Source: Thermofilum adornatum (GTDB lineage Archaea; Thermoproteota; Thermoprotei; Thermofilales; Thermofilaceae). From it: DNA of 32,000 bases. A program made the position numbers and the translations under genes. Positions within the stretch are counted from its first letter, which is position 1; every line of letters starts with the position of its first letter. Below are positions 8,977 through 25,640 of the stretch, in pieces. The DNA is taken from the NCBI RefSeq assembly GCF_000446015.1, contig NC_022093.1:600001-632000 (forward strand), written 5' to 3'. The notes under the pieces were generated by a model, which ran no database searches, had not been told where the DNA came from, and saw only the letters and a list, made by a program, of their open reading frames with translations.

Positions 8977-9423
8977 TTAGGTGTAGAGCGCTACCTTGGA
9001 CGGGTCGTATTTCCAGTCTGGGGGGAGTATGCCCTCCCTCTTATAGTACTTTGCAAGTCTGTGTATCTTGCTTTCTATTAGCTGTAACCCCCTCTTTGAG
9101 TGATAGTCTTTTGGATGCTCGTCGAGGTGCTTCCTTACCCTTACGGCTCTTTTCATGAGGTTGAGGAGATCTTCAGGGATTTCTGGCGCGAGTCCCCTTT
9201 CCCTAAGTATCTGCAGGACGCTTTTACCGGTAACAGCTTTTACAAGGGGAATGCCGTATTGGTCGCGGAGGATAGTGCCGATCATTGATGGTGGATAACC
9301 CTTCCTGTGGAGGGAGACGACTAGCTCCTCTACCTCTTCTGGCCTCATTTTTATCCATTCTGGTTTTTCGAGGCGTGCGGGTCTAAGGGAGCCAGACCGG
9401 CCCTTCTCTTTACTCTTCCTCAT
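8977..9423 (-). CDS. rps15: 30S ribosomal protein uS15 (S13e-type)
   Basis: 148 aa with full-length resemblance to archaeal S15 ([29 protein letters not shown] ... [20 protein letters not shown]). Confidence 0.9.
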
Positions 9424-11526: not shown

Positions 11527-12227
11527 CCGAAGGTTATCCTTGTATACTTCTCTCTTTCTCCGCTTAGAACCCTGAAGATCCTATCTGGAGGATTACCGTT
11601 GAGAACATATGTGGCTATCCTGCCCCTCTCAATGATGTTTAGCGCATAAAGGTCTATTAGACGGTACTCGCCCGCATGTTGCCCCGACACAAATTTTCTC
11701 TTTAACTCCCCAACAGATATCTCCTCGAGAAAACTTGCCTCCGGATGCTTTTTGGGGTCCTCCGTGTATATACCGTCAACGTCCGTAGCTATAATGAGCT
11801 CCGCGCCCAGCGACTCGGCCGCCAGGGCGGCAGTAGTAGTAGTCGACTGGCCGGGCTGGAGCCCACCCATAAAGATAATCTTCATCCCGAGATTAACCAG
11901 CTCGTGTAGCCTTCTCAACGTGTCTGGAATCAGCGGAAATGTTCCATAGAAAGCCGTATGCATGAGTGAAGCGTTGAGCCTGCTTACTTGTATACCTATC
12001 TCGTCAAGCAGACTCTCGTTGACGGCAAGCCTCCTGCCGACCTCAATGTATCTCCTTGCAACCTTGCCCCCACCGACCACCACAACGATTTTTCTGTCCG
12101 ATGCCTCGCTGTACTTCTTCAGCGATGCGAGAAAGCTCTTTACGTATTCTTCGCGGAGCTCTCCCCCCTCAGTGAACAATAGAGACCCGCCAAGCTTTAT
12201 AACTGCTGGACGCATATTGCTCTCCAT
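11523..12227 (-). CDS. pyrH: uridylate (UMP) kinase, archaeal type
   Basis: Amino-acid-kinase fold motifs: VIKLGGSLL, VVVGGGKVARRY and ATDVDGIYTEDPKK. The start may be Met5 (12215). Confidence 0.85.
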   Translation of the reverse strand: MESNMRPAVIKLGGSLLFTEGGELREEYVKSFLASLKKYSEASDRKIVVVVGGGKVARRYIEVGRRLAVNESLLDEIGIQVSRLNASLMHTAFYGTFPLIPDTLRRLHELVNLGMKIIFMGGLQPGQSTTTTAALAAESLGAELIIATDVDGIYTEDPKKHPEASFLEEISVGELKRKFVSGQHAGEYRLIDLYALNIIERGRIATYVLNGNPPDRIFRVLSGEREKYTRITFG

Positions 12228-12366
12228 CTACGACGAGCACCACACACTCTTAAGAATATTTCTTGTGTCTCCCATGGAAGTGGTATAGGGGAAACATACA
12301 TGGCAAACATACCTTTAAAAACCATTTACATGCTTAAAGAGTAGACACTTTAGGTGAGCGGAGACA

Positions 12367-13599
12367 ATGAGAGAGGATGTAGAGAGATTCAAGCTGGAAA
12401 AGCTAGTCGAGGAGCTAAAAAAGAAGGAGGGAAGAGGGACAGAGCTCGTATCACTATACATACCAGCCGGCAGACCTATCAGCGAAGTCGTAAACACGCT
12501 CACCTACGAGTACGCCACGGCCTCAAACATAAAGGACCGGGTCACAAGGCACCACGTACTAGACGCATTGGCATCCATAATTAGCCGCCTAAAGATGTTC
12601 AAGGAGACGCCGCCAAACGGCTTGATAGTCTTCGCTGGCTACGTCGCTGGAGACGTGCCCGGCCGAGAAAAAATGGAGATTCACCTCATAGAGCCGCCGC
12701 AGAAGCTGAACGTCTGGCTCTACAGGTGCGACTCTAGATTCTACACAGAGATACTCGAAGACATGATAAGAGTGAAAGAGGCCTACGGGCTCATCCTCGT
12801 GGAGCGAGACGAGGCAGCAATAGCGATTCTCAGGGGCAAATCGCTAGAGGTGGTTGACGAGCTTACGGCTGGCATCCCGGGAAAGCACAGGAGCGGTGGA
12901 CAGTCGGCCAGGAGGTATGAAAGAGTAATTGAGCAACTTGTACACGAGTTCTATAAGAGGCTAGGCGAACACGCCAACAAGATATTTCTACCGATAAAGG
13001 ACGAGCTAAAAGGCATAATCGTTGGCGGCCCCGGCTTCTCGAAAAAAGAATTCGTAGAAGGCGACTACCTCCACTACGAGCTACGCCAAAAAGTAATCGG
13101 AGTATTTGACGTTGGGTACGGCGGGGTCTCGGGCCTCTACGAGCTACTCGACAAGGCGCGGGACCTAATAAGGGACGTACAGTACATGAAGGAAAGAGAA
13201 ACAGTAAACAAGTTCCTGTACCACTTGGCCCGAGACACAGGGCTAGCAATATACGGAGAAGAAGAGGTTCGACAGGCCCTACAGCTGAACGCTGTCGACA
13301 CGCTCCTCGTATCAGAGGCAGTAAACAAGGTAAGGGTCCACGCTGTATGCAAGACATGCAAGCACGAGTTCCAGGCGACGCTCAACAGTGAGGAAGAGGC
13401 AAACAAGCTGACATGCCCCAAGTGCGGCGGCGAGGTCGAGGTACTAGAGAACAAGATGATAATTGAAGAGCTGGCCGAGCTGGCAGAGAACAGTGGCGCA
13501 GAAGTTGTACTGGTCTCGACGGAGTCGGCAGAGGGGAAAGAATTCTACAAGACATTTGGGGGCATAGCTGCCATACTGAGATACAAGCTACAGAAGTAA
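12367..13599 (+). CDS. prf1: peptide chain release factor aRF1
   Basis: 410 aa. GGQ motif (HRSGGQSARRYER), NIKS-position motif reading ASNIKDR, and a C-terminal zinc-ribbon insert CKTC...CPKC. Confidence 0.9.
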   Translation: MREDVERFKLEKLVEELKKKEGRGTELVSLYIPAGRPISEVVNTLTYEYATASNIKDRVTRHHVLDALASIISRLKMFKETPPNGLIVFAGYVAGDVPGREKMEIHLIEPPQKLNVWLYRCDSRFYTEILEDMIRVKEAYGLILVERDEAAIAILRGKSLEVVDELTAGIPGKHRSGGQSARRYERVIEQLVHEFYKRLGEHANKIFLPIKDELKGIIVGGPGFSKKEFVEGDYLHYELRQKVIGVFDVGYGGVSGLYELLDKARDLIRDVQYMKERETVNKFLYHLARDTGLAIYGEEEVRQALQLNAVDTLLVSEAVNKVRVHAVCKTCKHEFQATLNSEEEANKLTCPKCGGEVEVLENKMIIEELAELAENSGAEVVLVSTESAEGKEFYKTFGGIAAILRYKLQK

Positions 13600-13603
13600 G
13601 AAA

Positions 13604-14233
13604 ATGAAAAAGAAAGAGCTCGAGCGGATCCTAAATCTTGTCCCCAGGCATCCTTCTCCAAAGATACATTTTGAACAGTACTCTACTCCTGCAACCCTAG
13701 CGGCTACAATGCTCTGGATAGCCGAGGAGCACTACCACGACATATCCGGCAAAAGGGTTGTCGACCTCGGGAGTGGCACTGGGAGGCTTGGGCTGGGCGC
13801 CGCTGTCCTAGGTGGACAGACACTTCTTCTAGACATAGACTACGAGGCGTTGCAGGTTGCACGTAGTCAAGCTGTACAGCTAGGAATCTACGATAGGGTG
13901 GACCTTGTTGCAACAGACGTTTTGCATCTCCCATTCAGGGAGAACATTGTATTCGACACTGTGATCCAGAACCCGCCCTTTGGGGTCCACAGGAAGGGGA
14001 GCGACATTGCCTTCCTAGAGAAGGCCCTGGCCCTAACAGAGACAATTTACAGCCTTCACAAGGCAAACACTATCAGCTACATTAGGAGCTTCCTCAGGAA
14101 ACACCACCCTTCCCTCGTCATCGATGTGCTCCTCGAAGAAGAAATATGCATACCCCCCGAATACATGTTCCACAGGAAAAGGAGACACTGCTTCAAGGTC
14201 TCCCTTATCCGTGTATACAGGCCTAGACAGTAG
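13604..14233 (+). CDS. METTL5-like SAM-dependent (N6-adenine) RNA methyltransferase
   Basis: FEQYSTPA N-terminal motif, SAM-binding VVDLGSGTGRLG, and catalytic VIQNPPFG. Confidence 0.75.
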   Translation: MKKKELERILNLVPRHPSPKIHFEQYSTPATLAATMLWIAEEHYHDISGKRVVDLGSGTGRLGLGAAVLGGQTLLLDIDYEALQVARSQAVQLGIYDRVDLVATDVLHLPFRENIVFDTVIQNPPFGVHRKGSDIAFLEKALALTETIYSLHKANTISYIRSFLRKHHPSLVIDVLLEEEICIPPEYMFHRKRRHCFKVSLIRVYRPRQ

Positions 14234-14252
14234 CAGGCTCATAATAATATAT

Positions 14253-14864
14253 ATGGGTGCAAATTCACTTTTCAAAGTGGTGTATATGGAGACCCCAGAC
14301 AAGAAGCAGATAGTCATACCTGGCGAGGAAATAGCGACGATCGAGGAGTATTCTCCGGGAAAAAACGTGTTCCAAGACACCGGCGACGGGCTGATAAAGT
14401 CGAAAAAAGTCGGAAGGCTACGGCTCGACGTAAAGACCCACGTTGCAGAAGTCGAGAGCATGAAGACCCACAAAAATGTACTTACGAAAAACGAGGTTGT
14501 ATACGCTGTGGTGGAGCGGTTCGAGGACCCAATCGCCGTCTTGAGGATCATATATTCAGAAAGCAAAAAGACCCCAATAGTCCCATCCGTGACTGGCATC
14601 CTGCATGTAGCAAATGCTAGCAACTCGAGGGTACGATACCTTTCAGACGTCTTCGGCTATGGAGACATAGTGAGGGCATACGTTGTAGAGGAGGGCGGCC
14701 CACCGTTCTACCTGTCGACCAGGGGGCGACAATTCGGAGTAATCGTGGCAAAGTGCCCTAAGTGTATGTCGTCCATGAGGAAACGCGGCATAGTGCTTTA
14801 CTGCCCCCAGTGCGGCTACAAGACAAAGAACAAGAAGATAAGCCTGTACTATCTCTTAAAGTAG
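14253..14864 (+). CDS. csl4: exosome complex RNA-binding subunit Csl4
   Basis: N-terminal VIPGEEIATIEEYSPGKNV, a central S1-like domain, and a C-terminal zinc ribbon CPKC...CPQCG. The longest ORF (14124) overlaps the upstream gene, so ATG 14253 or ATG 14286 is more likely. Confidence 0.8.
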   Translation: MGANSLFKVVYMETPDKKQIVIPGEEIATIEEYSPGKNVFQDTGDGLIKSKKVGRLRLDVKTHVAEVESMKTHKNVLTKNEVVYAVVERFEDPIAVLRIIYSESKKTPIVPSVTGILHVANASNSRVRYLSDVFGYGDIVRAYVVEEGGPPFYLSTRGRQFGVIVAKCPKCMSSMRKRGIVLYCPQCGYKTKNKKISLYYLLK

Positions 14865-14878
14865 CAGGGCGCCTAGCG

Positions 14879-15490
14879 ATGCGAGGCATTACCCTCACTC
14901 TGAACTTTGACACTCCCGAGGAGGCCATTTCCTTTTTGAAGCTAATAACATCCAGGATAAAATACTCCGGGCTTTACGGTGAGATAAAGGGCAAAAAATT
15001 GAAGCTATTCATCCCAGAGAGCCAGAGAACCGAAGAAGTCGTAAACGAAGTAAAAACCCTATACAGGGAACTGCACGGCGCAAAAAACGCCTTCCAGAAA
15101 AAGAGATTTAAGATTCAAACAGTCCTCTCACTGGCAAAGCTCGAAACAGCCATACCGGTACCCGTCCTCGTAGACATTATCAAGCTACAGGGCAAACACG
15201 CGAGGCTAGCTGGGGAAACGATAGAGACAAGCCTTGAGCTCAACGAGCTTGTAAAACTCGCAGAACAAGTCTCATCAGCTTACCACTCAGCGATACATAT
15301 GCCACTAACATCCTCTGCTAGGCGGCTCCTAGTTGTCGCCTCCCTGACGCTTGGAAAAAATCCCGAAGAAACGGTTAGCTTACTGCTCTCCAGAAACCTT
15401 TTGAGGGAAGAAGACGGTACACTGAGCCTTTCCATGGACTATGAGCGGAGCCTTGAAAAGCTGAGAGAACTAGTAAAACAGTCTACATGA
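14879..15490 (+). CDS. hypothetical protein
   Basis: ATG 14879 (MRGITLTLNF) follows the csl4 stop; the 242-aa longest ORF overlaps csl4. I recognise no motif. Confidence 0.5.
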   Translation: MRGITLTLNFDTPEEAISFLKLITSRIKYSGLYGEIKGKKLKLFIPESQRTEEVVNEVKTLYRELHGAKNAFQKKRFKIQTVLSLAKLETAIPVPVLVDIIKLQGKHARLAGETIETSLELNELVKLAEQVSSAYHSAIHMPLTSSARRLLVVASLTLGKNPEETVSLLLSRNLLREEDGTLSLSMDYERSLEKLRELVKQST

Positions 15491-16331
15491 TGTATGAAAA
15501 GTTCCTGTCAGAGACCCTTTTCTTTAGCTTCTCGTTTATCTTTACCTCGAATTCTTTCACAAACAGTATCCTGAGCATACGCTCAGAATTTGAGATCCTC
15601 ACTTCAGCTGAGTAGCCTAAAGACACGGTCTTCTGGCCGTCGAGAATCATATTTGCCGGGTGTGCCAGTATCCTTACGCCTATGGTTCCGCCGTGGATCA
15701 CTAGCGGGCGGAGAGCGGGCGACAACGCGCCTGGAAAAAGCACCTCTAAAAGCTTCTGGCCGACATCGAGGATCACCGGCCCGCCATAGGACAGAGCGTG
15801 CCCAGTGCTACCGCTGGGCGTAGCCACAATTATCCCATCCGACCTGCCGTGGTAAAGGCCCAAGCCATCCAGCGAGAACTCGAACTCTATCAGCTTGCCC
15901 GGGAGAGCCCAGATACACAGCTCGTTGAGAAAGACCCCCTTCTCGTCTCCATAGGCGTACTCCCCCAGGGCAACATTCCTGGTGGAGTAATTCCCCTCGA
16001 GAACATTTTCCAGCACCTTTTCCGCGTCGCGTATACTGTGTGGAAGCAGGTAGCCAAGGCTGTCAGCCGCGAAGCCCAGGATAGGCGGCAGGATACCGCC
16101 ACTCTTCTGGACAATCCTGAGAAACGTCCCGTCCCCGCCGACAAGTATCCCGAGGTCGGCTTTTGTGGCCTCGTTCTCGCTTAGCTGTTCCACAGGTATC
16201 TCGTGGCCCAGGACCGGGTCAACGTATACCTCGACACCCCTCGCCGCGAGGAAATCGTATATCTTCTTTGCCCAGCCGGCCGCCACCGGGTCGCCTGCCC
16301 TGGCCTTCAGCCAAACACTACGTATAGACAT
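15483..16331 (-). CDS. nadK: NAD kinase
   Basis: GGDGTFLR motif, NELCIW and ATPSGSTGHALSYGGP blocks. 282 aa. Confidence 0.85.
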   Translation of the reverse strand: MSIRSVWLKARAGDPVAAGWAKKIYDFLAARGVEVYVDPVLGHEIPVEQLSENEATKADLGILVGGDGTFLRIVQKSGGILPPILGFAADSLGYLLPHSIRDAEKVLENVLEGNYSTRNVALGEYAYGDEKGVFLNELCIWALPGKLIEFEFSLDGLGLYHGRSDGIIVATPSGSTGHALSYGGPVILDVGQKLLEVLFPGALSPALRPLVIHGGTIGVRILAHPANMILDGQKTVSLGYSAEVRISNSERMLRILFVKEFEVKINEKLKKRVSDRNFSYIM

Positions 16332-16397
16332 CTATAAGCTCCTAGAACTTATTAACACTCGATATTAAAAATTTTAGATGTGCCTTGCTGTCAGCTT

Positions 16398-17510
16398 TTA
16401 TCCTCGCCGCATCCTCTTGAGGTACTCGCTTAGGGGCTCCCTTATTACTATGCCTTTGCCAGAGACAATGTCAAAGATGTATTTGCTGGGCTTTACTGGC
16501 GCCCACCTAGCCTTCCTGATGTACATGACCCTCTCGACGTTTCCGTATATCTCCTCGATGCCCAGCACTATGATCCCAGAAGCCAGGAACTCCTCTACGC
16601 CGAACCTGCTCAGCTTCGTGCTACCAGTAGGTATCTCGCTGGTCATGATGGTTGTCAGCTCCCCGGTCTTCTCTATTGCGAAGACCATTTCTCTCAGGAA
16701 CTCTCTTGCATAGAGAACGTCCTCTTCTTTCCCGCCGTAGACAAGGGGCGCGATGGGGTCTATGACAAGCCTCTTCGCGTTTATCTTCTTTGCCGCTGCA
16801 AGTATCTGCTCGATGATGTACCTGGGCTCGATGTTTTTCCTCTCGTCCCTCATGTAGATCTTGCTGAAGTGGGTCCTCATGTCCACAAACATCAGCTTCC
16901 TAGAGGATATTAGATCCCTCAGATTCCACCCAAATATCTGGAGGCCGCGGAGCAACTGGTTCGTCGGCTCGTCTATAGCTATGTATAGCCCCGGCTCGCC
17001 GTTAAGTGCGCCATGCAACAGGAACTGGATAGAGAGGATTGTTTTTCCACAGCCAGCCTCTCCAGCGACCAGGTATGTCTTCCCCCTCAGGAAGCCTCCC
17101 GCAAGAATCTCGTCGAGCCCTGGGACACCCGTCGGTGCAAACAGTGCCTTACGGGTTATCAGTGCCTGCTGGTAATTATAGGTGTACGGGTCGTCCTGGT
17201 ATGGCAACTCGTCGACTGCCTGGGGGACAGCAGGGACACTGGGTACAGCGGGGGCTGGAGGCACCTCCTCTGGTATAGCCTCTGCGACCTGAGTATCGTA
17301 GCTCTCCTGGACTGGGACGGGCTGTGAAACAACCTGTGTAGATGCGGCCGGCTGCACGGCCTGGACCTGCGTGGGCACCCTGCACAGCGGATTATATGGA
17401 TCGGGGACTTGCGTCTTAAGCTTGAGGCAGTACTGTCTAGACTTTATGTATAATGGACACCCAATACACGAAGACCTAGCAGGTTTACCCATGTCCGCCA
17501 ATTCGACCAC
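16398..17510 (-). CDS. KaiC/RecA-superfamily ATPase with N-terminal Cys cluster and P/Q/V-rich linker
   Basis: GVPGLDEILAGGFLRGKTYLVAGEAGCGKT (Walker A) and a KRLVIDPI Walker-B-like strand. The N-terminus has CIGC...C...C followed by about 90 low-complexity residues. Confidence 0.7.
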   Translation of the reverse strand: MVELADMGKPARSSCIGCPLYIKSRQYCLKLKTQVPDPYNPLCRVPTQVQAVQPAASTQVVSQPVPVQESYDTQVAEAIPEEVPPAPAVPSVPAVPQAVDELPYQDDPYTYNYQQALITRKALFAPTGVPGLDEILAGGFLRGKTYLVAGEAGCGKTILSIQFLLHGALNGEPGLYIAIDEPTNQLLRGLQIFGWNLRDLISSRKLMFVDMRTHFSKIYMRDERKNIEPRYIIEQILAAAKKINAKRLVIDPIAPLVYGGKEEDVLYAREFLREMVFAIEKTGELTTIMTSEIPTGSTKLSRFGVEEFLASGIIVLGIEEIYGNVERVMYIRKARWAPVKPSKYIFDIVSGKGIVIREPLSEYLKRMRRG

Positions 17511-17571
17511 TATTTCTGAATTTTAGAAATTGTTGCTTAAATATGTATCTTTTCAACGCCAAGAGAAAAAA

Positions 17572-17841
17572 TCAGACATCCTCAACCCTCTCAGCCGACA
17601 ACACTGCCTCTAGAAGCCTGGCAAAAGTGTTAAAAGCGGCCCGCAGGCTAGAAACGTCCCCAGAAGTTATCTCTACAAGCATCTTTCCCTCCCCAGCAAG
17701 CCTAGCCACAGCCCTTGACCTGTACCTCGGAGCCGCCCCAGTCTCGGGCAAAAATGCACGGTAAATCCACTCCACGCGGTCAGGGTCGCCCTCGACCTCT
17801 AAGACAGCCCTGAAACGACCATTAGCGTCGTCCACACGCAT
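17572..17841 (-). CDS. pcc1: KEOPS complex subunit Pcc1-like
   Basis: 89 aa. The pattern FRAVLEVEG...IYRAFLPE...MLVEITSGDVSSLRAAFNTFARLL matches the Pcc1/CTAG fold consensus (A.D...LRa..Ns.lR). Confidence 0.65.
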   Translation of the reverse strand: MRVDDANGRFRAVLEVEGDPDRVEWIYRAFLPETGAAPRYRSRAVARLAGEGKMLVEITSGDVSSLRAAFNTFARLLEAVLSAERVEDV

Positions 17842-17874
17842 ATTAGAGCATTGCCTTTACTGGCAGAAAAGCTT

Positions 17875-18462
17875 TTATGCGTTATCCCCTGTGTCCCTAG
17901 CCCGGTAATAGCGGACAGACTTGACCAGCATCCTTGGACCAATATAGGCACCGTTCTCGTAGAACTTCAACACGAACAAGAAGTCCCTCCCCTTCACGGG
18001 CTCCACCAGGAGAGCCCTGCCCGACAGGCCTCCAAGCTCGTCCACCCCCACAACCCCCACATACGTCAAGTCAAACATAGAGGCAACGTCCAGCCCATAC
18101 TCAGACTCCTCCCCAAGCGAGTACACATACACATCCGACGAAGCCCTCGGGACACGCTTATCCCCCGAAAACACGACCCCGCGGAGATACAGAATAGCCG
18201 GGATCCTCCTAGCCACTTCTCCCCCAACATCCCAGGCCGCAATCCTCCCAGGGTTGCCCCCAAGCCCCCTATACACGACCACAAGCCTCCTAGCACCCAT
18301 ATACCTAGCCAAAGCCAGCATCTCCCCAAGGCTCCTACCACCCCTATTAACCCTCCTCGCCCCCGGAAGACACATGGCAAGCTCACGCGCAAGCCTCCTC
18401 ACATGCACAGTATCATGCCTACAAGTAGACACCACTACCCGCCACGCCATCCAGTAAAACAA
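17875..18462 (-). CDS. Brix-domain ribosome-biogenesis protein (Imp4/Mil-like)
   Basis: VVVSTCRHDTVHVRRLARELA...RVNRGGRSLGEM...GGNPGRI pattern. The probable start is Met5 (18450). Confidence 0.65.
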   Translation of the reverse strand: MFYWMAWRVVVSTCRHDTVHVRRLARELAMCLPGARRVNRGGRSLGEMLALARYMGARRLVVVYRGLGGNPGRIAAWDVGGEVARRIPAILYLRGVVFSGDKRVPRASSDVYVYSLGEESEYGLDVASMFDLTYVGVVGVDELGGLSGRALLVEPVKGRDFLFVLKFYENGAYIGPRMLVKSVRYYRARDTGDNA

Positions 18463-18552
18463 GACACAACAAACTAAATACCTTTACCCCGACAAATCCA
18501 GCCCCGAGAAAAATATAAATAACAACAACCAACAAAAAACAAGAAACCCCTT

Positions 18553-18665
18553 GGGCCCGTAGCGCAGTTAGGAAGCGCGGCGGCCTTCTAGGCCGAAAAA
18601 CCGCGAACAACACAAAACACGAAGAAAGCCGCAGGTCCCGGGTTCAAATCCCGGCGGGCCCGCCA
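18553..18665 (+). tRNA. tRNA-Arg: tRNA-Arg (anticodon TCT) with an intron of about 36 nt in the anticodon loop, CCA encoded
   Basis: Acceptor GGGCCCG/CGGGCCC, D-arm GCGC-AGTTAGGAA-GCGC, anticodon stem GCGGC (18580-84) paired to GCCGC (18628-32), loop CT-TCT-A. The inserted sequence at about 18591-18626 sits at the canonical 37/38 position. T-arm CCGGG-TTCAAAT-CCCGG. TATA-like AAAATATAAATA lies about 30 nt upstream. Confidence 0.85.
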
Positions 18666-18872
18666 TCAAAACATTATAAAACACAATAAACACAAGACAC
18701 ACAACCAGAACCCCATACAAGACCCAAACAACAATATTGAAGCCTCAAGGCATCAGAAATTCAAAAAGTGTTCTCTGCGGTTTATTCCAAAAATTTTTCA
18801 TAGTCAAATTTTCTCTAGACCAGTTTCCAGATCTACATAAAATTTAACTATATATAATTCAAATTTACACTT

Positions 18873-19769
18873 GTGAAGGTTGTAACTTTTCTTAGCGTGA
18901 AGGGCGGCGTAGGCAAGACAACTCTGACAGTCAATACAGCTAACGAGCTGGCGACAAAAATAGGGGGATCAGACAAAGTACTCATAATAGATCTAGACGC
19001 CCAGGCTGGGGCATCCGTATATCTATTAGGGTACGATCAACAACAAGCCCTTGAAAAACAAAACCAAACAATCCACGAATTACTAGACAAGACAATAAAC
19101 AACCAGGACCCCAACATCTCTAAATATATAATAAACCCGTATAAAACAAACCCATCCAGCGGTTGGAGTCCAAGGCTCGACATTATAGTTGGGGACTCAA
19201 GGATAATAGACCTTGAAAGAGAAATCATTTCTCGATCTGCCGCAAAAGGGTTCGGGTGGAGCCTCATACTGTACCAGTTATTGACGAAGCTTTCACAGCT
19301 CAACTATAGCTTCATATTCATAGACCCGCCGGCAACTCTTGGCGCCCTTTCAAGAATGGCGCTAGGCGCAAGCAACTACTTCCTTATTCCACTCATTCCA
19401 GACGACTTCGGCCGCGTCACAGTGGGCATGTTCACAAAGGACTTCTTCAACCAAGCATTCTACGAGATCGCACTCGCTGGACGACAAGACCGACCACTAT
19501 GCGGAGGCATAGTCTTCAACAAGATAAAGACAAGCACCCATGCCAAAATAGCAGACGAGATAGCCGACGAGATATGCGGCAAGAAGCTCTACGACAAATA
19601 CTCCATACCAGTCTACAAGACTAAGCTCTACGACAGAATAGCATACGTCAAATCACTAGAAGAACACAAACCCCTGTACAAAATTGGAGACAAAAAAGCA
19701 GAGGAAGAGTTCCAAAGCTTCTTCGACGAATTCTACGACTACGTGGTAAGAGACAAGGCAAAAGGGTGA
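18873..19769 (+). CDS. ParA/Soj/MinD-family (SIMIBI) ATPase
   Basis: GTG start, which places the deviant Walker A SVKGGVGKTT at residues 8-17. IIDLDAQ (Walker A') and IFIDPPATLG (Walker B). A TATA-rich box (AAAATTTAACTATATATAA) lies immediately upstream. Confidence 0.85.
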   Translation: MKVVTFLSVKGGVGKTTLTVNTANELATKIGGSDKVLIIDLDAQAGASVYLLGYDQQQALEKQNQTIHELLDKTINNQDPNISKYIINPYKTNPSSGWSPRLDIIVGDSRIIDLEREIISRSAAKGFGWSLILYQLLTKLSQLNYSFIFIDPPATLGALSRMALGASNYFLIPLIPDDFGRVTVGMFTKDFFNQAFYEIALAGRQDRPLCGGIVFNKIKTSTHAKIADEIADEICGKKLYDKYSIPVYKTKLYDRIAYVKSLEEHKPLYKIGDKKAEEEFQSFFDEFYDYVVRDKAKG

Positions 19770-20221
19770 AAAAACTGCAGGACTTCGCCAGTGAAGAGGA
19801 GGCCTACAAATACGTATCCCACGTCTTGAGCGAAAAAGGCTACAAAGTAAAAAGAATAATGAGCGGGAAGGGAAAACAATCCCCAGATGCGGACATTGAG
19901 CTAGAGAAAAACAATGAGAAGATAGCCATCGAAGTAAAATACTTCAAAGACGCACCTAAATTCTACTTGGGACTGGATGAAGCGCTTGCGCTCCTTCTTC
20001 ATGGCTATGACAAGGTCTACCTGTTGCACGTGCTCGACACAGCGCTAAGCGATAAATGCGAGAACCATGTTTCCAAAGCTCTAGCCATCATAAACTTAAC
20101 GCCTATTGGTTACATGTTCATGATTGGGCGGGGAGACCCCAAGATCCTCAGGGAAGCCTTAAGAAACCCTCTAAAGATGGACCCCCACCTTCACGAGTCG
20201 CACAGCCAAAGCATTCACTAA
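19766..20221 (+). CDS. small PD-(D/E)xK nuclease-fold protein, Hjc/Hje (Holliday junction resolvase)-like
   Basis: The GTG start overlaps the ParA TGA (GTGA at 19766-19769). 151 aa with motif order E10-E12 ... GYKVKR ... SPD41AD43 ... IAIE56VK58. The fold assignment is by eye only. Confidence 0.55.
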   Translation: MKKLQDFASEEEAYKYVSHVLSEKGYKVKRIMSGKGKQSPDADIELEKNNEKIAIEVKYFKDAPKFYLGLDEALALLLHGYDKVYLLHVLDTALSDKCENHVSKALAIINLTPIGYMFMIGRGDPKILREALRNPLKMDPHLHESHSQSIH

Positions 20222-20571
20222 AGGACATGCTTCGAGACACCCACGACATTATCTTCCATTGTAGCTCAGTGGACTCGTAATGATCGAAAATTCACGTTGA
20301 TATTAGAGAACCACCAAACCATGACCCTTTGATAAACGCGTTACAAAACTCACTAAAAAACAGCCCCAACAGTGCCATTAATCCGCATACCCACCAGCCA
20401 CCCACACAATTTTCAACCCATCCTCTCCTGGAACCATCCCCTAAAACATACTTCGCCACACCACTTATTCGTCTTTTATCCCGCTACACATTGCCCAAAC
20501 AAACTAGACCCAGAAAAGCGACTCAAGAACAAAACTACATAATCCAAGAACCAAAAAGCAGAAAAGCCATA

Positions 20572-20690
20572 AAAACAAAGTTATCACATAGCATAATATC
20601 GTTATTATTTATGATAACAATGTTATTACATGTATTTTAAACAGAGAAAAACAAAAATAACAAAGTTATACACAAACATAACAAAATTAT
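20572..20690. repeat. four phased copies of a 13-bp inverted repeat ATAAC-N3-GTTAT
   Basis: Perfect copies at 20614..20626 (ATAACAATGTTAT) and 20657..20669 (ATAACAAAGTTAT). One-mismatch copies at 20572..20584 (AAAACAAAGTTAT) and 20678..20690 (ATAACAAAATTAT). Start-to-start spacings are 42, 43 and 21 bp. Confidence 0.7.
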
Positions 20691-20734
20691 TACAAGCCAA
20701 TTCACAGTACTCAAAAACAGCCCTGCGTCTTCAC

Positions 20735-22459
20735 CTTTCAATTCTTTCTTAGTTGCATCTGCTCTTGATTTTCGGCTTCGCTATTTTCGGCTTCGGCTTC
20801 GCCTTCAATTCTTTCTTAGTTGCATCATCGGAAACACTTATTTTCTGGTTTATGTCCTTATTCATCCTTCAATTCTTTCTTAGTTGCATCAGGTGGCTCC
20901 GCGCCCTCGAGTCCCCCGCAGACACTCGTGTGCCTTCAATTCTTTCTTAGTTGCATCACACATATTCTTCACACCGCACGAGCTCCAGCCAGTGCTAGCA
21001 CCCCTTCAATTCTTTCTTAGTTGCATCGTACAGACAGACAGCACAGGCAGAATAGTGTACAATAGAATTCCTTCAATTCTTTCTTAGTTGCATCAGCACG
21101 TATATCCACCACATTTTTCTGCACCTCTTTTTTCAACCTTCAATTCTTTCTTAGTTGCATCGTCGAGCGCATGGATTATTCCGAGCGTCACGAAGAACAA
21201 CCCTTCAATTCTTTCTTAGTTGCATCTCGATATCGTTTTCGACGCCCGCCGAACCCACACAGGACCCTACCTTCAATTCTTTCTTAGTTGCATCTAATCT
21301 GGGGCGTGGAATCTATGTAGCCACTTCGTTCACCTTCAATTCTTTCTTAGTTGCATCTACCATGTTTGCTTTTCTAGCAGGTGTAATTTCAAGTACCTTC
21401 AATTCTTTCTTAGTTGCATCAGAAGTGGCAGGGGAGGAATTGTATCCGCTTATACGCCCTTCAATTCTTTCTTAGTTGCATCGTAACGAGGCAAAGCACA
21501 CAGCAATTGATTGCCTACATCCTCTTCCTTCAATTCTTTCTTAGTTGCATCCAGACAGCTTAAGGAGTTCCAGTTGAGGATGGAGAGGCTCCCCTTCAAT
21601 TCTTTCTTAGTTGCATCTCAAGCGAGTCTGGGTCACTTGCCTTTGCTTTTTCAAAGCCTTCAATTCTTTCTTAGTTGCATCAGGAGGCGTGACGGGAAGG
21701 AATACGAGTATGGCATGGTGTCCTTCAATTCTTTCTTAGTTGCATCAATGAATAGGCAAAGAAAGCTAGGAAAGCTGTTAAAGCAACCTTCAATTCTTTC
21801 TTAGTTGCATCGCTAGAATTTTCAAAGCTCGACCTATCCCTTACCAGCTTCGCCTTCAATTCTTTCTTAGTTGCATCTGTGGGAAAATGGTTCAACACCT
21901 CAAACTAGATTCAATCTACCTTCAATTCTTTCTTAGTTGCATCAGGATTGGCCTCTTGAAGAAAGCAGATGGGGAAAGCATCCTTCAATTCTTTCTTAGT
22001 TGCATCGGCGCTAGGACTTATAAGCATCACCTATAGGATTATCAAGTCCTTCAATTCTTTCTTAGTTGCATCGTTGGCTAATGGGGATGACCAAGGTATA
22101 CGCGTATGTGACCTTCAATTCTTTCTTAGTTGCATCAACGCAAGGGTTGAGGAATATAGGGAAACACTGCAGTCAATCCTTCAATTCTTTCTTAGTTGCA
22201 TCCACAGCTATGAAACCAGTAATATTTCTCGATAAATCGCCTTCAATTCTTTCTTAGTTGCATCTATTTCTGGCTTTTGAAGTTTCCAGAGATAAATAGC
22301 AATTCCTTCAATTCTTTCTTAGTTGCATCGACAGGGTGAGGCCGGGGACGCCACACAGATAATCGCCCTTCAATTCTTTCTTAGTTGCATCAGTCATTTA
22401 CCCGTGACGATGTCCCCAAAATCAGTGCCGCTGCCCTTCAATTCTTTCTTAGTTGCATC
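20735..22459 (-). CRISPR. CRISPR array, 27 repeats of 25 nt and 26 unique spacers (37-45 nt)
   Basis: The plus-strand repeat is CCTTCAATTCTTTCTTAGTTGCATC, with starts at 20735, 20802, 20866, 20933, 21003, 21070, 21137, 21202, 21270, 21333, 21396, 21458, 21527, 21593, 21657, 21722, 21787, 21853, 21919, 21982, 22048, 22112, 22178, 22240, 22305, 22367 and 22435. Only the repeat at 20735 deviates (CTTTC...). The reverse complement GATGCAACTAAGAAAGAATTGAAGG ends in ATTGAAGG. This resembles the Sulfolobales repeat family ending in ATTGAAAG, hence the minus-strand call. Confidence 0.95.
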
Positions 22460-22900
22460 CGAAATGTTTTACTCGGGTGTGGTTTATATGTTTAATGCTT
22501 TTTCCTGCAAGAAGTCTGCAAAACTGCCCTAGCACTCAGAATTACTCGTTGGAAACTTCTGAAACTTCCCAGTAGGGAAGCTTCCCGGAACGCCCCGTTT
22601 TAAGACGGGAAGTTTTCCCGTAAACCTAAATTTAAAATAATCCTCTCGTCAAGAAACTTCATAAACAACTTTTAGTTTTCCTTAAAGAAAACATTGACTT
22701 ACTTTGCTTTCAATGTAGTTGAACATATATGGGTGTGTTCCTTGGTTGTGAGGTTCAGCATGCTATGAGCCTAAGCTGTGCAATAGGAGATGTTATTCTA
22801 AAGATTTATTGTGGAATTTGTAGTGTTTTTGTGAGAAGACTTGTAGAGCTGGTTGCCTAGATGGTTTTCGGTGTAAAGGATCATAGAATAATCCAATAGT
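22460..22900 (-). promoter_or_regulatory. CRISPR leader (minus-strand orientation), between the array and the cas4 3' end
   Basis: An ORF-free region of about 440 bp that abuts the perfect repeat at 22435-22459. The degenerate repeat is at the opposite end, and the region contains clustered palindromes (22552-22619). Confidence 0.65.
22483..22496 (-). promoter_or_regulatory. candidate TATA box for pre-crRNA transcription
   Basis: The minus strand reads ATTAAACATATAAA, followed by about 23 nt and then the first repeat. This would place the transcription start at or just upstream of the repeat boundary. Confidence 0.4.
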
Positions 22901-22921
22901 AAAAAAGTAAAAAGAAAAAAA
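22901..22921 (-). terminator. oligo-T terminator candidate for the cas4-cas2-cas1-csa1 operon
   Basis: The minus strand reads TTTTTTTCTTTTTACTTTTTT about 30 nt after the cas4 stop. Archaeal termination typically uses T-tracts. Confidence 0.5.
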
Positions 22922-22950
22922 TAGATTGTCTATGTTTAGGTTGACTGTTG

Positions 22951-24735: not shown

Positions 24736-25640
24736 CCACACACGCCCCTAAAGGGACAAGACTCGGGGCATACCTCTGCTCTGGGCGGCTCCTTACCCGA
24801 TACAAGCATGTCTATGACCTCGTCCCTAGCATCTATGAACTCGCTCCTCAGGCTCGTCGATATGTAGACAGGCTCCCAACTGAAACCGACCTTCCCGCCG
24901 TTAGCTATGGACACATAGAGGAGAATGCCATAGTCTACTGGAACCTCGTAGTTTGCCTCTAGGGCCAATGCATAGCCTGCGAGGGCCCTTTTATAGTTTT
25001 CATGGGGCTTCCCGAGCTTCACCTCTATTACAACGCCTGTCTCGACAAGGGCGTCTACACGGAGATTCCTAGACAAGCCAAGCATGGATCCGTCAACCCT
25101 CTACTCCGAGAAATAGTAGACCCACTCGTCCGCGGAGAACCTGAGGAGAAGCTTCTTATAGAGGTCTACGACCCACCTCTGCTTCGCCAAGTCCACACCC
25201 ATCTCCTTCAGTTTCCTGTAAACCGTCCTTGAAACATTCTCATAGGCCTCCTATCCGCTCCGGCCAAGGGCAAGCTCCCTCCTGACCTCTTCGGAAACCA
25301 TCTGGAAGACCCTGTGAACAAGCTCGCCGTTAGCCAGCCACTGGTTTTTCTCGCCCTCGACACCCATCCTCCTCAGGTAGACATCCCTCATTGTTGGACA
25401 ATACCTGTACGCGACCTCGCTCACGCCTAGCCCGAGATACGCCCTGGGGCGAAGAGGAGGCTTGTCCCAGTTCCACCCCCTATACTCCTCTTCTACAGGG
25501 TCCTGGCTCCTTGCCCTGTGAAACCTTCTCAAACTCGCATACAGGTCTCTCTTAGAAAAGTAGCCCACACTCATGTTGTTTCCCCATGGATAGAGGAACA
25601 ACTGTAATCTAATATTGGTTCTTACGGCTCTAGAATACAA
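24732..25640 (-). pseudogene. csa1: csa1 (Cas4-family, type I-A) interrupted by two in-frame TAG codons
   Basis: ORFs 25251..25640 and 24732..25085, plus the 49 codons between them, are all in one frame. The in-frame stops are TAG at 25251-25253 and 25101-25103 (plus-strand CTA). The concatenated protein has YRYCP near the N-terminus, VDAL...IEVK, and a C-terminal CPESCPFRGVC. It is about 280-300 aa, as expected for Csa1. Confidence 0.75.

Follow-up and report, generated by a model that had tools for sequence, protein, structure and literature searches.

The window analysed here, a 32,000 nt stretch of the Thermofilum adornatum genome (NC_022093.1, GCF_000446015.1; positions 600,001 to 632,000 of the forward strand), contains a two-gene operon in which parA, the gene of a ParA-type ATPase, overlaps the gene of a 151-aa protein with the endonuclease fold of the PD-(D/E)xK superfamily (Table 1). 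Judged from its sequence, a ParA with a conserved, coupled and apparently active endonuclease partner would match no described ParA system, and a literature search found no description of a pair formed by a ParA and a PD-(D/E)xK protein. The operon can be read as a ParA-partner operon or as a nucleoside triphosphatase (NTPase)-nuclease pair, with an unprecedented combination of components. Further, the small protein founds an unnamed, undescribed PD-(D/E)xK family for which Pfam holds no dedicated model. We tentatively regard the pair as an accessory module that acts in genome conflict and whose nuclease is regulated by ParA. A first-pass annotation of the window had correctly read the coordinates of the two genes, their GTGA overlap, the ParA motifs, and the residues E10-E12, GYKVKR, S39-P40-D41-A42-D43 and I55-E56-V57-K58 of the small protein.

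Conservation of the pair and identity of its proteins

The first-pass annotation had treated the two genes as one module, and the pair is indeed conserved as a unit elsewhere: nine Thermofilaceae-type lineages hold parA and the nuclease gene as an overlapping unit. These are the T. adornatum strains (the window and loci L006, L010, L016 and L017), a Thermofilum sp. group (L005, L011 and L019-L022), T. pendens (L007, CP000505; proteins of 299 and 147 aa), Infirmifilum uzonense (L008/L009; 305 and 138 aa) and five deeper lineages of metagenome-assembled genomes, or MAGs (L001/L013; L002-L004/L012/L023; L024; L049; L050-L052). All nuclease homologues with at least 37% identity have ParA directly upstream with an overlap of 4 to 35 nt, and overlaps within this range recur in the T. 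pendens, Infirmifilum and MAG loci. The exceptions are L018, where ParA has been replaced and a remnant of the nuclease gene is left, and L024, where a frameshifted ParA stops just before the nuclease start. In the window, the overlap has the form GTGA, implying translational coupling.

The amino acid identities of ParA and the nuclease to their window counterparts drop together (98/98, 56/51, 52/44, 51/48, 45/38 and 41/40%), while the G+C content (GC) of the pair loci ranges from 39 to 66%; the pair has therefore resided in these lineages for a long time, apparently by vertical descent and not by recent transfer. Judging by the searches that were run, the pair seems to be present once per genome. 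A GTDB scan with a 13-sequence alignment recovered five loci and missed the complete Thermofilum genomes. Because the pair recurs at 37-98% amino acid identity with low ratios of nonsynonymous to synonymous substitution (dN/dS of 0.075-0.6 for parA and 0.06-0.27 for the small gene, the latter indicating purifying selection), both open reading frames (ORFs) are real genes.

The ATPase carries KGGVGKTT at residues 10-17 together with IIDLDAQ and IFIDPPATLG, so that the deviant Walker A motif, the Walker A' motif (DxDxQ) and the Walker B aspartate are all present; no motif for ATP binding or for the dimer sandwich is impaired. Across 13 family members, the signature lysine K10, the catalytic lysine, GGVGKTT, DLDAQ, FIDPPA and PDD/E are invariant. 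In Pfam, the protein matches AAA_31 (8.7e-25, 88.1 bits, cutoff 27) and CbiA (2.4e-13, 50.5 bits, cutoff 25.4), and it is 98% identical to an annotated T. adornatum ParA family protein. It does not reach the NCBIfam ParA_partition equivalog (69.8 bits against a cutoff of 180), and it is therefore a diverged ParA outside that named group. The closest solved sequences are Borrelia PF-32, Helicobacter pylori Soj, pNOB8 ParA (residues 2-248), ParF, P1/P7 ParA and SegA. An AlphaFold 2 (AF2) model (predicted local distance difference test, pLDDT, of 89.8) finds its best Foldseek matches in Soj, ParA, McdA, the delta protein and the pNOB8 ParA-DNA structure, with template modelling (TM) scores of 0.68-0.71 by query and 0.78-0.85 by target. 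These results uphold the full ParA/Soj signature described by the first-pass annotation, and by its modelled fold the protein is an ATPase of the nucleoid-binding Soj/ParA kind, with a predicted capacity for DNA binding.

The 151-aa protein falls firmly inside the PD-(D/E)xK superfamily. The elements of its AF2 model (pLDDT 85.5; helices H10-23 and H70-78, strands E27-31, E44-48, E51-60 and E83-90), its Foldseek neighbours and its Pfam and hhalign matches agree on this membership. Against the PDB, Foldseek places the XisH-like structure 2okf first (E-value 4e-4, TM 0.47/0.53), followed by SfsA, EcoT38I, ST1444 Hjc and Archaeoglobus fulgidus Hjc, with RecU and MspJI among the further matches. 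Compared with viral models, a phage MmcB-like protein is the best match (E-value 1.9e-5, TM 0.54/0.55), followed by restriction endonucleases. The XisH-like and MmcB-like proteins are thus the best structural matches to the model, but their sequence identity to it is only 17-20% and neither is known to pair with a ParA ATPase.

At the sequence level, the nearest characterised relative is Hjc, a Holliday-junction resolvase of archaea, yet the 151-aa protein is not an Hjc. The Pfam Hjc profile scores 22.6 bits (cutoff 21.1) over profile positions 8-64 of 93 only; weaker Pfam matches are NOV_C, Mrr_cat and XisH (E-value 0.16 for XisH). A PHROGs family named 'Holliday junction resolvase' matches at 4e-4, and phmmer against the PDB finds Hjc chains at E-values of about 0.7-1.0. 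A word-indexed search for a canonical hjc of Thermofilum, started from the S. solfataricus Hjc (top match 99% identical to that protein), returned only Sulfolobales and a few other Hjc sequences, an outcome of the word index. Aligned by hhalign with eight canonical Hjc sequences, the family matches over 62 columns (84% probability, E-value 7e-6), and D43, E56 and K58 fall opposite Hjc D42, E55 and K57 in the same order and spacing. From this register, the equivalent of the catalytic aspartate is D43 and not D41 of the PD motif, which the first-pass annotation had stressed while listing both. E10, in helix 1, is invariant. The register of the helix-1 glutamate is uncertain, as hhalign sets Hjc E12 opposite Y14. 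The residues that are invariant across the eight Hjc sequences (R28, P30, S32, G33 and Q70, including the R-x-P-x-S-G loop) are not conserved in the new family, and TM scores to Hjc chains reach only 0.27-0.41 by query and 0.32-0.49 by target in Foldseek. The C-terminal half is family-specific, with a GLDEALALL helix, a VYLLHV strand, a PIGY hairpin and an NP motif. The label 'Hjc-like' given in the first-pass annotation therefore stands only at the level of the superfamily, and the N-terminal 60-70 residues are the only ones that align.

The extent of the nuclease family was mapped by a word-indexed search of 5.8 billion proteins, which returned 13 relatives, and by a profile search run exhaustively against 1.84 billion cluster representatives, which returned 131 at E < 1e-3. 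Only about seven of the latter are close relatives of about 150 aa. The remaining members of this wide family are 190-260 aa long and have the common core QPDIDIL...EVKYF...YxGLDEALALL...PIGY...NP(L/F); the signature of the family as a whole is PDxD...EVKYF...YxGLDEALALL...PIGY...NP. In a Pfam scan of 20 relatives, none scored above threshold. The subfamily of about 150 aa has E10, D43, E56 and K58 without exception. The wide family never departs from P40, D43, E56 and K58, nor does a subset of 13 sequences from E10. Because this E...D...ExK set for metal binding and catalysis is invariant under purifying selection, the 151-aa protein is likely to be an active enzyme.

In the loci examined, ParA is never near the wide-family members of about 190-260 aa. 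At three distinct loci in Thermoprotei-type metagenome contigs (L014/L030, 225-4429; L032, 223-4429; L035, 223-4408), the wide-family nuclease of about 200 aa is the third gene of an operon, after a coiled-coil protein of about 510 aa without a Pfam match and an SNF2/ResIII helicase of about 680 aa; this operon is a candidate for an uncharacterised helicase-nuclease system. In another contig (L026, 787-4417), a 1015-aa N6_Mtase/Eco57I-type (type IIG-like) protein is directly followed by a 188-aa wide-family nuclease, which may be the accessory nuclease of a restriction-modification-like system. Other wide-family members are solitary among unrelated genes.

Variable location, decay and flanking DNA

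The location of the pair is not syntenic among three complete genomes, and its neighbours differ from locus to locus. In the window these are type I-A CRISPR-Cas genes, while Cas4-like, DUF87 and type I restriction-modification genes adjoin the pair in L006. The T. pendens region (L007, 1-5561) looks like a defence island: the genes just upstream of the pair encode a DUF499 protein that exceeds 1000 aa, a protein of 132 aa and an SNF2/ResIII helicase of 813 aa, and those downstream encode a coiled-coil PDDEXK_10 protein and two HEPN-MNT pairs. Infirmifilum has VapBC and MazE; L001 has MazE-PIN and HEPN-MNT; L002 has a solitary cas6 divergent to the pair; and L050-L052 have HEPN-MNT, RHH-PIN and Csx1. 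Overall, toxin-antitoxin, CRISPR or restriction-modification genes occur in most of the distinct neighbourhoods examined, which is suggestive of an accessory role.

A firmer sign of accessory behaviour is that the pair has decayed repeatedly. Locus L018 matches the window at 97% identity as far as the 3' end of the upstream tRNA (window 18665). Beyond it, an ABC-transporter operon takes the place of window positions 18666-19781, which hold the promoter, parA and the nuclease gene's first 16 nt; the nuclease remnant carries indels and is frameshifted. As the divergence begins exactly at the tRNA 3' end, this end is a recombination or replacement boundary. A parA pseudogene is present in L002 (5222-6004) and in L003, L004, L012 and L023: it contains an in-frame TAG (5441-5443 of L002) and an internal deletion of about 46 aa, which takes away the strand that follows Walker B. 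The 158-aa nuclease encoded downstream of it is intact. Separate assemblies from NCBI, ENA, Logan and JGI share this break. L024 and L051 have a split ParA as well, which may in both cases be an assembly error. Because of the destruction in L018 and the ParA breaks in up to three lineages, the module is dispensable, with ParA more prone to loss than the nuclease.

The T. adornatum DNA beyond the pair is hypervariable. Strain 1505 has a CRISPR array with wholly different spacers, L017 has a GNAT gene, L018 has other content, and L006 has an array of two or three repeats plus an insertion. No match was detected between the window spacers and strain 1505, though the flank is 99.66% identical up to position 20759 (window 12001-20759 against CP007493.1).

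The parA-nuclease transcript is presumed to be leaderless or near-leaderless and to be driven from the AT-rich, TATA-like region directly upstream of parA. In L006, from a strain that is 96% identical, window bases 18812-18872 (61 bp) are deleted at about positions 9085-9095 of that locus, with short direct repeats (TCAAATTT; TCAAATTTTCT and TCAAATTTACACT) on both sides of the deletion. It takes the TATA-like region and the GTG start of parA, such that the gene caller picks an upstream start and a 303-aa product. The deletion leaves the ORFs intact, and the bases 18812-18872 are therefore not essential for their upkeep.

The first-pass annotation had also tied to the pair a set of palindromes downstream of it, a link that did not survive comparison. 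Four ATAAC-N3-GTTAT-like palindromes stand in an AT-rich region (20572-20690) that adjoins the CRISPR array; the window has six matches to the motif against 0.81 expected, with up to two mismatches allowed. An insertion of about 470 bp parts them from the pair in L006, and they remain beside the CRISPR repeats both there and in L010. They were not found in the 13 other loci compared. The palindromes are thus part of the flank of the array rather than of the ParA module, and their candidacy as the pair's centromere or operator is rejected on these grounds; they could bind some factor, such as a regulator of the CRISPR locus. Within about 400 bp up- or downstream of the pair, no iterated centromere-like repeats were found in eight other loci, although a centromere may lie farther away.

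The position of the pair after a tRNA gene and beside CRISPR-cas genes, which the first-pass annotation had taken to fit an accessory island, is true of the window and specific to T. adornatum; it is not a general property of the pair. A tRNA-linked integrated element was rejected as such a property, since the tRNA occurs only at the T. adornatum loci and no integrase is among the genes called adjoining the pair at any locus. The first-pass annotation had noted a lower G+C content as well. The pair does lie below the genes just upstream, but it is no outlier within the window and the difference is not significant: GC is 0.457 for parA and 0.465 for the small gene (window median 0.487, range 0.42-0.57), and GC at third codon positions (GC3) is 0.528 and 0.586 (window median 0.558). 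Low G+C as a sign of foreign origin was rejected, given these values and the spread of GC among the pair loci of different lineages.

Proposed function and rival explanations

ParA/MinD ATPases are positioning motors, and their partners are DNA-binding adaptors or cargo proteins. The first-pass annotation had offered two readings of the pair, a segrosome-like module and an ATPase-nuclease module of defence or of a mobile element; the evidence leans, tentatively, to a role that is accessory or in conflict. Under the genome-conflict reading, the nuclease would be the cognate partner of ParA. An ATP-bound ParA dimer would bind DNA non-specifically and would recruit, distribute or license the nuclease there; in turn, the ParA ATPase would receive feedback from the nuclease or from the DNA on which it acts. 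The module would act in genome conflict, by restriction of, or competition with, invading or mobile DNA. It would thus differ both from a classical partition cassette and from the Holliday-junction resolvase of the cell. This reading is favoured because the pair is conserved, its identities co-diverge, the catalytic set is invariant and ParA resembles DNA-binding segregation ParAs; because its location is non-syntenic, its neighbours include defence and toxin-antitoxin genes, and it has undergone decay; because, in some of its more distant relatives, the nuclease gene comes after that of an SNF2-like helicase or of a type IIG-like methylase, both typical partners of defence nucleases; and because iterated centromere repeats are lacking in the eight other loci.

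Among known defence systems, Septu PtuAB, PARIS AriAB and Gabija GajAB share the layout of a compact NTPase-then-nuclease operon near CRISPR-Cas, restriction-modification and toxin-antitoxin genes. They differ in that they combine ABC, AAA15 or OLD ATPases with HNH or TOPRIM nucleases and are mobile, whereas the present pair has a ParA-type ATPase and is restricted to one archaeal family. A more specific proposal, which we put forward as speculative and rather unlikely, is that the pair is the first ParA-based system of nuclease immunity or plasmid interference, in which a nucleoid-coating ParA dimer would license or deliver the PD-(D/E)xK endonuclease against incoming DNA, for example DNA that engages or mimics a partition complex. 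If so, prokaryotic defence would gain, in ParA, an NTPase module of a new class, and the SNF2-plus-nuclease operons would be sister systems with the same effector family. More generally, a nuclease controlled by ParA would add a new type of NTPase to the repertoire of ATPase-nuclease defence. In practice, work on the pair is limited by its hosts, which are all hyperthermophiles that are hard to grow.

Several observations weigh against a role in genome conflict. We know of no defence system that includes a ParA-family ATPase. In PADLOC, the nuclease and three wide-family members find no matching model, and the PDC-M28B model meets ParA only over residues 3-57, which form the P-loop. The nuclease has no match among IMG/VR viral contigs, INPHARED phages or PLSDB plasmids. 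Further, the pair looks like a one-family, apparently single-copy, vertical and GC-ameliorated element, unlike most defence systems, which are patchy and horizontally mobile. Where ParA is broken the nuclease is intact, and hence either ParA is not strictly required or the nuclease works alone. The neighbourhood signal itself is only suggestive, as genes of these kinds are very abundant in hyperthermophile genomes, and it may not rise above background. Separately, a viral or plasmid origin of the pair was considered and rejected, as the nuclease is unmatched in the three collections named above and ParA is only about 26-33% identical to generic plasmid and phage ParAs.

The main rival, which we consider unlikely though worth serious attention, is chromosomal partition of the type Ib, SegAB or HpaAB kind, with ParA as the motor and the PD-(D/E)xK-fold protein as a centromere-binding adaptor in the place of SegB. 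The adaptor would recognise specific DNA sequences by means of its restriction-enzyme-like fold. Type Ib par operons (ParF-ParG, delta-omega), SegAB and HpaAB likewise begin with a small Soj-like ParA without an N-terminal helix-turn-helix (HTH), followed by a coupled partner gene of about 110-150 aa, and the HpaAB operon has a 4-nt gene overlap too. The sequence and fold of this ParA are closest to their group, its best matches being segregation ParAs (PF-32, Soj, pNOB8 ParA, ParF and P1 ParA), and partition would agree with a pair that appears single copy, looks vertical within Thermofilaceae and co-diverges. A different adaptor in the filamentous Thermofilaceae is plausible, because a preprint reports segB in Sulfolobaceae and links SegB with non-rod-shaped Thermoproteota. 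However, the known partners are ribbon-helix-helix (RHH) or HTH centromere binders without an enzymatic site, whereas this partner lacks RHH and HTH domains and retains its invariant catalytic E/D/ExK set. Iterated centromere repeats flank the known systems, while no conserved array flanks this one in eight loci, and the sole nearby cluster (the four ATAAC-N3-GTTAT palindromes) keeps to the CRISPR array in L006 and is missing from the other loci. Nor does a partition function sit easily with the destruction of the module in L018, with the breaking of ParA alone in up to three lineages where the partner persists, or with a non-syntenic location. Should the partner nevertheless be a nuclease-fold centromere protein, it would bear on DNA segregation in filamentous Thermoproteota, for which no SegB has been reported.

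Improbable, to a greater degree, is a repair or recombination nuclease that cuts branched or damaged DNA as Hjc/Hje or MmcB would, with ParA distributing or activating it over the nucleoid. The PINA ATPase, which works with Hjc, offers a loose parallel. The protein has the length of Hjc/Hje (PF01870), at about 150 aa, and their order of catalytic motifs (E...D-13 residues-E-x-K), with a Pfam score just over the gathering threshold; Hjc is its nearest characterised sequence relative, and Hjc, RecU and MmcB-like 'DNA repair' proteins are among its neighbours in structure. The likeness to Hjc is nevertheless confined to the N-terminal half, with the low TM scores given above, a C-terminal half of its own and no conserved R-x-P-x-S-G loop. 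Moreover, Hjc is near-universal in archaea, whereas this family is restricted to Thermofilaceae-type lineages, disrupted in L018 and dispensable, and the pair lies in variable regions while repair genes are usually syntenic and stable.

The least probable explanation is a selfish addiction or toxin-antitoxin-like pair, with the nuclease as toxin and ParA as its restrainer or the reverse: an overlapping two-gene operon in a variable genomic position amid many toxin-antitoxin loci would suit it, but the inactivation of ParA in several lineages where the nuclease is intact under purifying selection is hard to square with ParA as an essential antitoxin, no known antitoxin resembles the 298-aa ATPase encoded upstream, and there are neither multiple copies per genome nor signs of horizontal spread.

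Other features of the window

Table 1. Positions of the pair and of the elements that flank it in the window.
Feature	Position	Strand	Basis
Presumed promoter, AT-rich, TATA-like (ATAAAATTTAAC / TATATATAA)	18790..18872	+	Read from the sequence, inferred
parA, Soj/ParA-type deviant-Walker-A ATPase, 298 aa, GTG start	18873..19769	+	Pfam, motifs, AF2/Foldseek
GTGA stop/start overlap, 4 nt	19766..19769	+	TGA of parA over GTG of the small gene, read directly
Gene of the 151-aa PD-(D/E)xK endonuclease-fold protein	19766..20221	+	Pfam, hhalign, AF2/Foldseek, dN/dS
tRNA-Arg(UCU), intron-containing, upstream of the pair	18553-18662		Rfam, 57.7 bits; anticodon TCT by reading the loop
CRISPR array, 27 repeats (CTTCAATTCTTTCTTAGTTGCATC), downstream of the pair	20735-22459		

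The tRNA-Arg gene encodes its CCA end, and ARAGORN misses it because of the intron. The first repeat of the CRISPR array, at 20734, is degenerate (CTTTCAATTC). The reverse complement of the repeat, GATGCAACTAAGAAAGAATTGAAG, resembles crenarchaeal type I-A repeats; this resemblance would suggest that the array is transcribed from the minus strand, with its leader on the cas4 side (22460-22950). The array is followed by the type I-A genes cas4, cas1, a Csa1 fragment, csa3, cas7/csa2 and the cas3 helicase. The Csa1 fragment is a 129-aa ORF on the minus strand (25251-25640) that matches profile positions 9-98 of 292 only, and the adjoining 24742-25250, within the region 24741-25640, is without any ORF of at least 120 aa; from these features, the csa1 gene of the window is probably frameshifted or truncated. 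Upstream of the tRNA, the ORFs 17851-18477 (plus strand) and 17875-18462 (minus strand) overlap almost wholly. The plus-strand ORF, rich in proline and histidine, is probably spurious, and the minus-strand ORF corresponds to the gene called in related records (191 aa, without a Pfam match).

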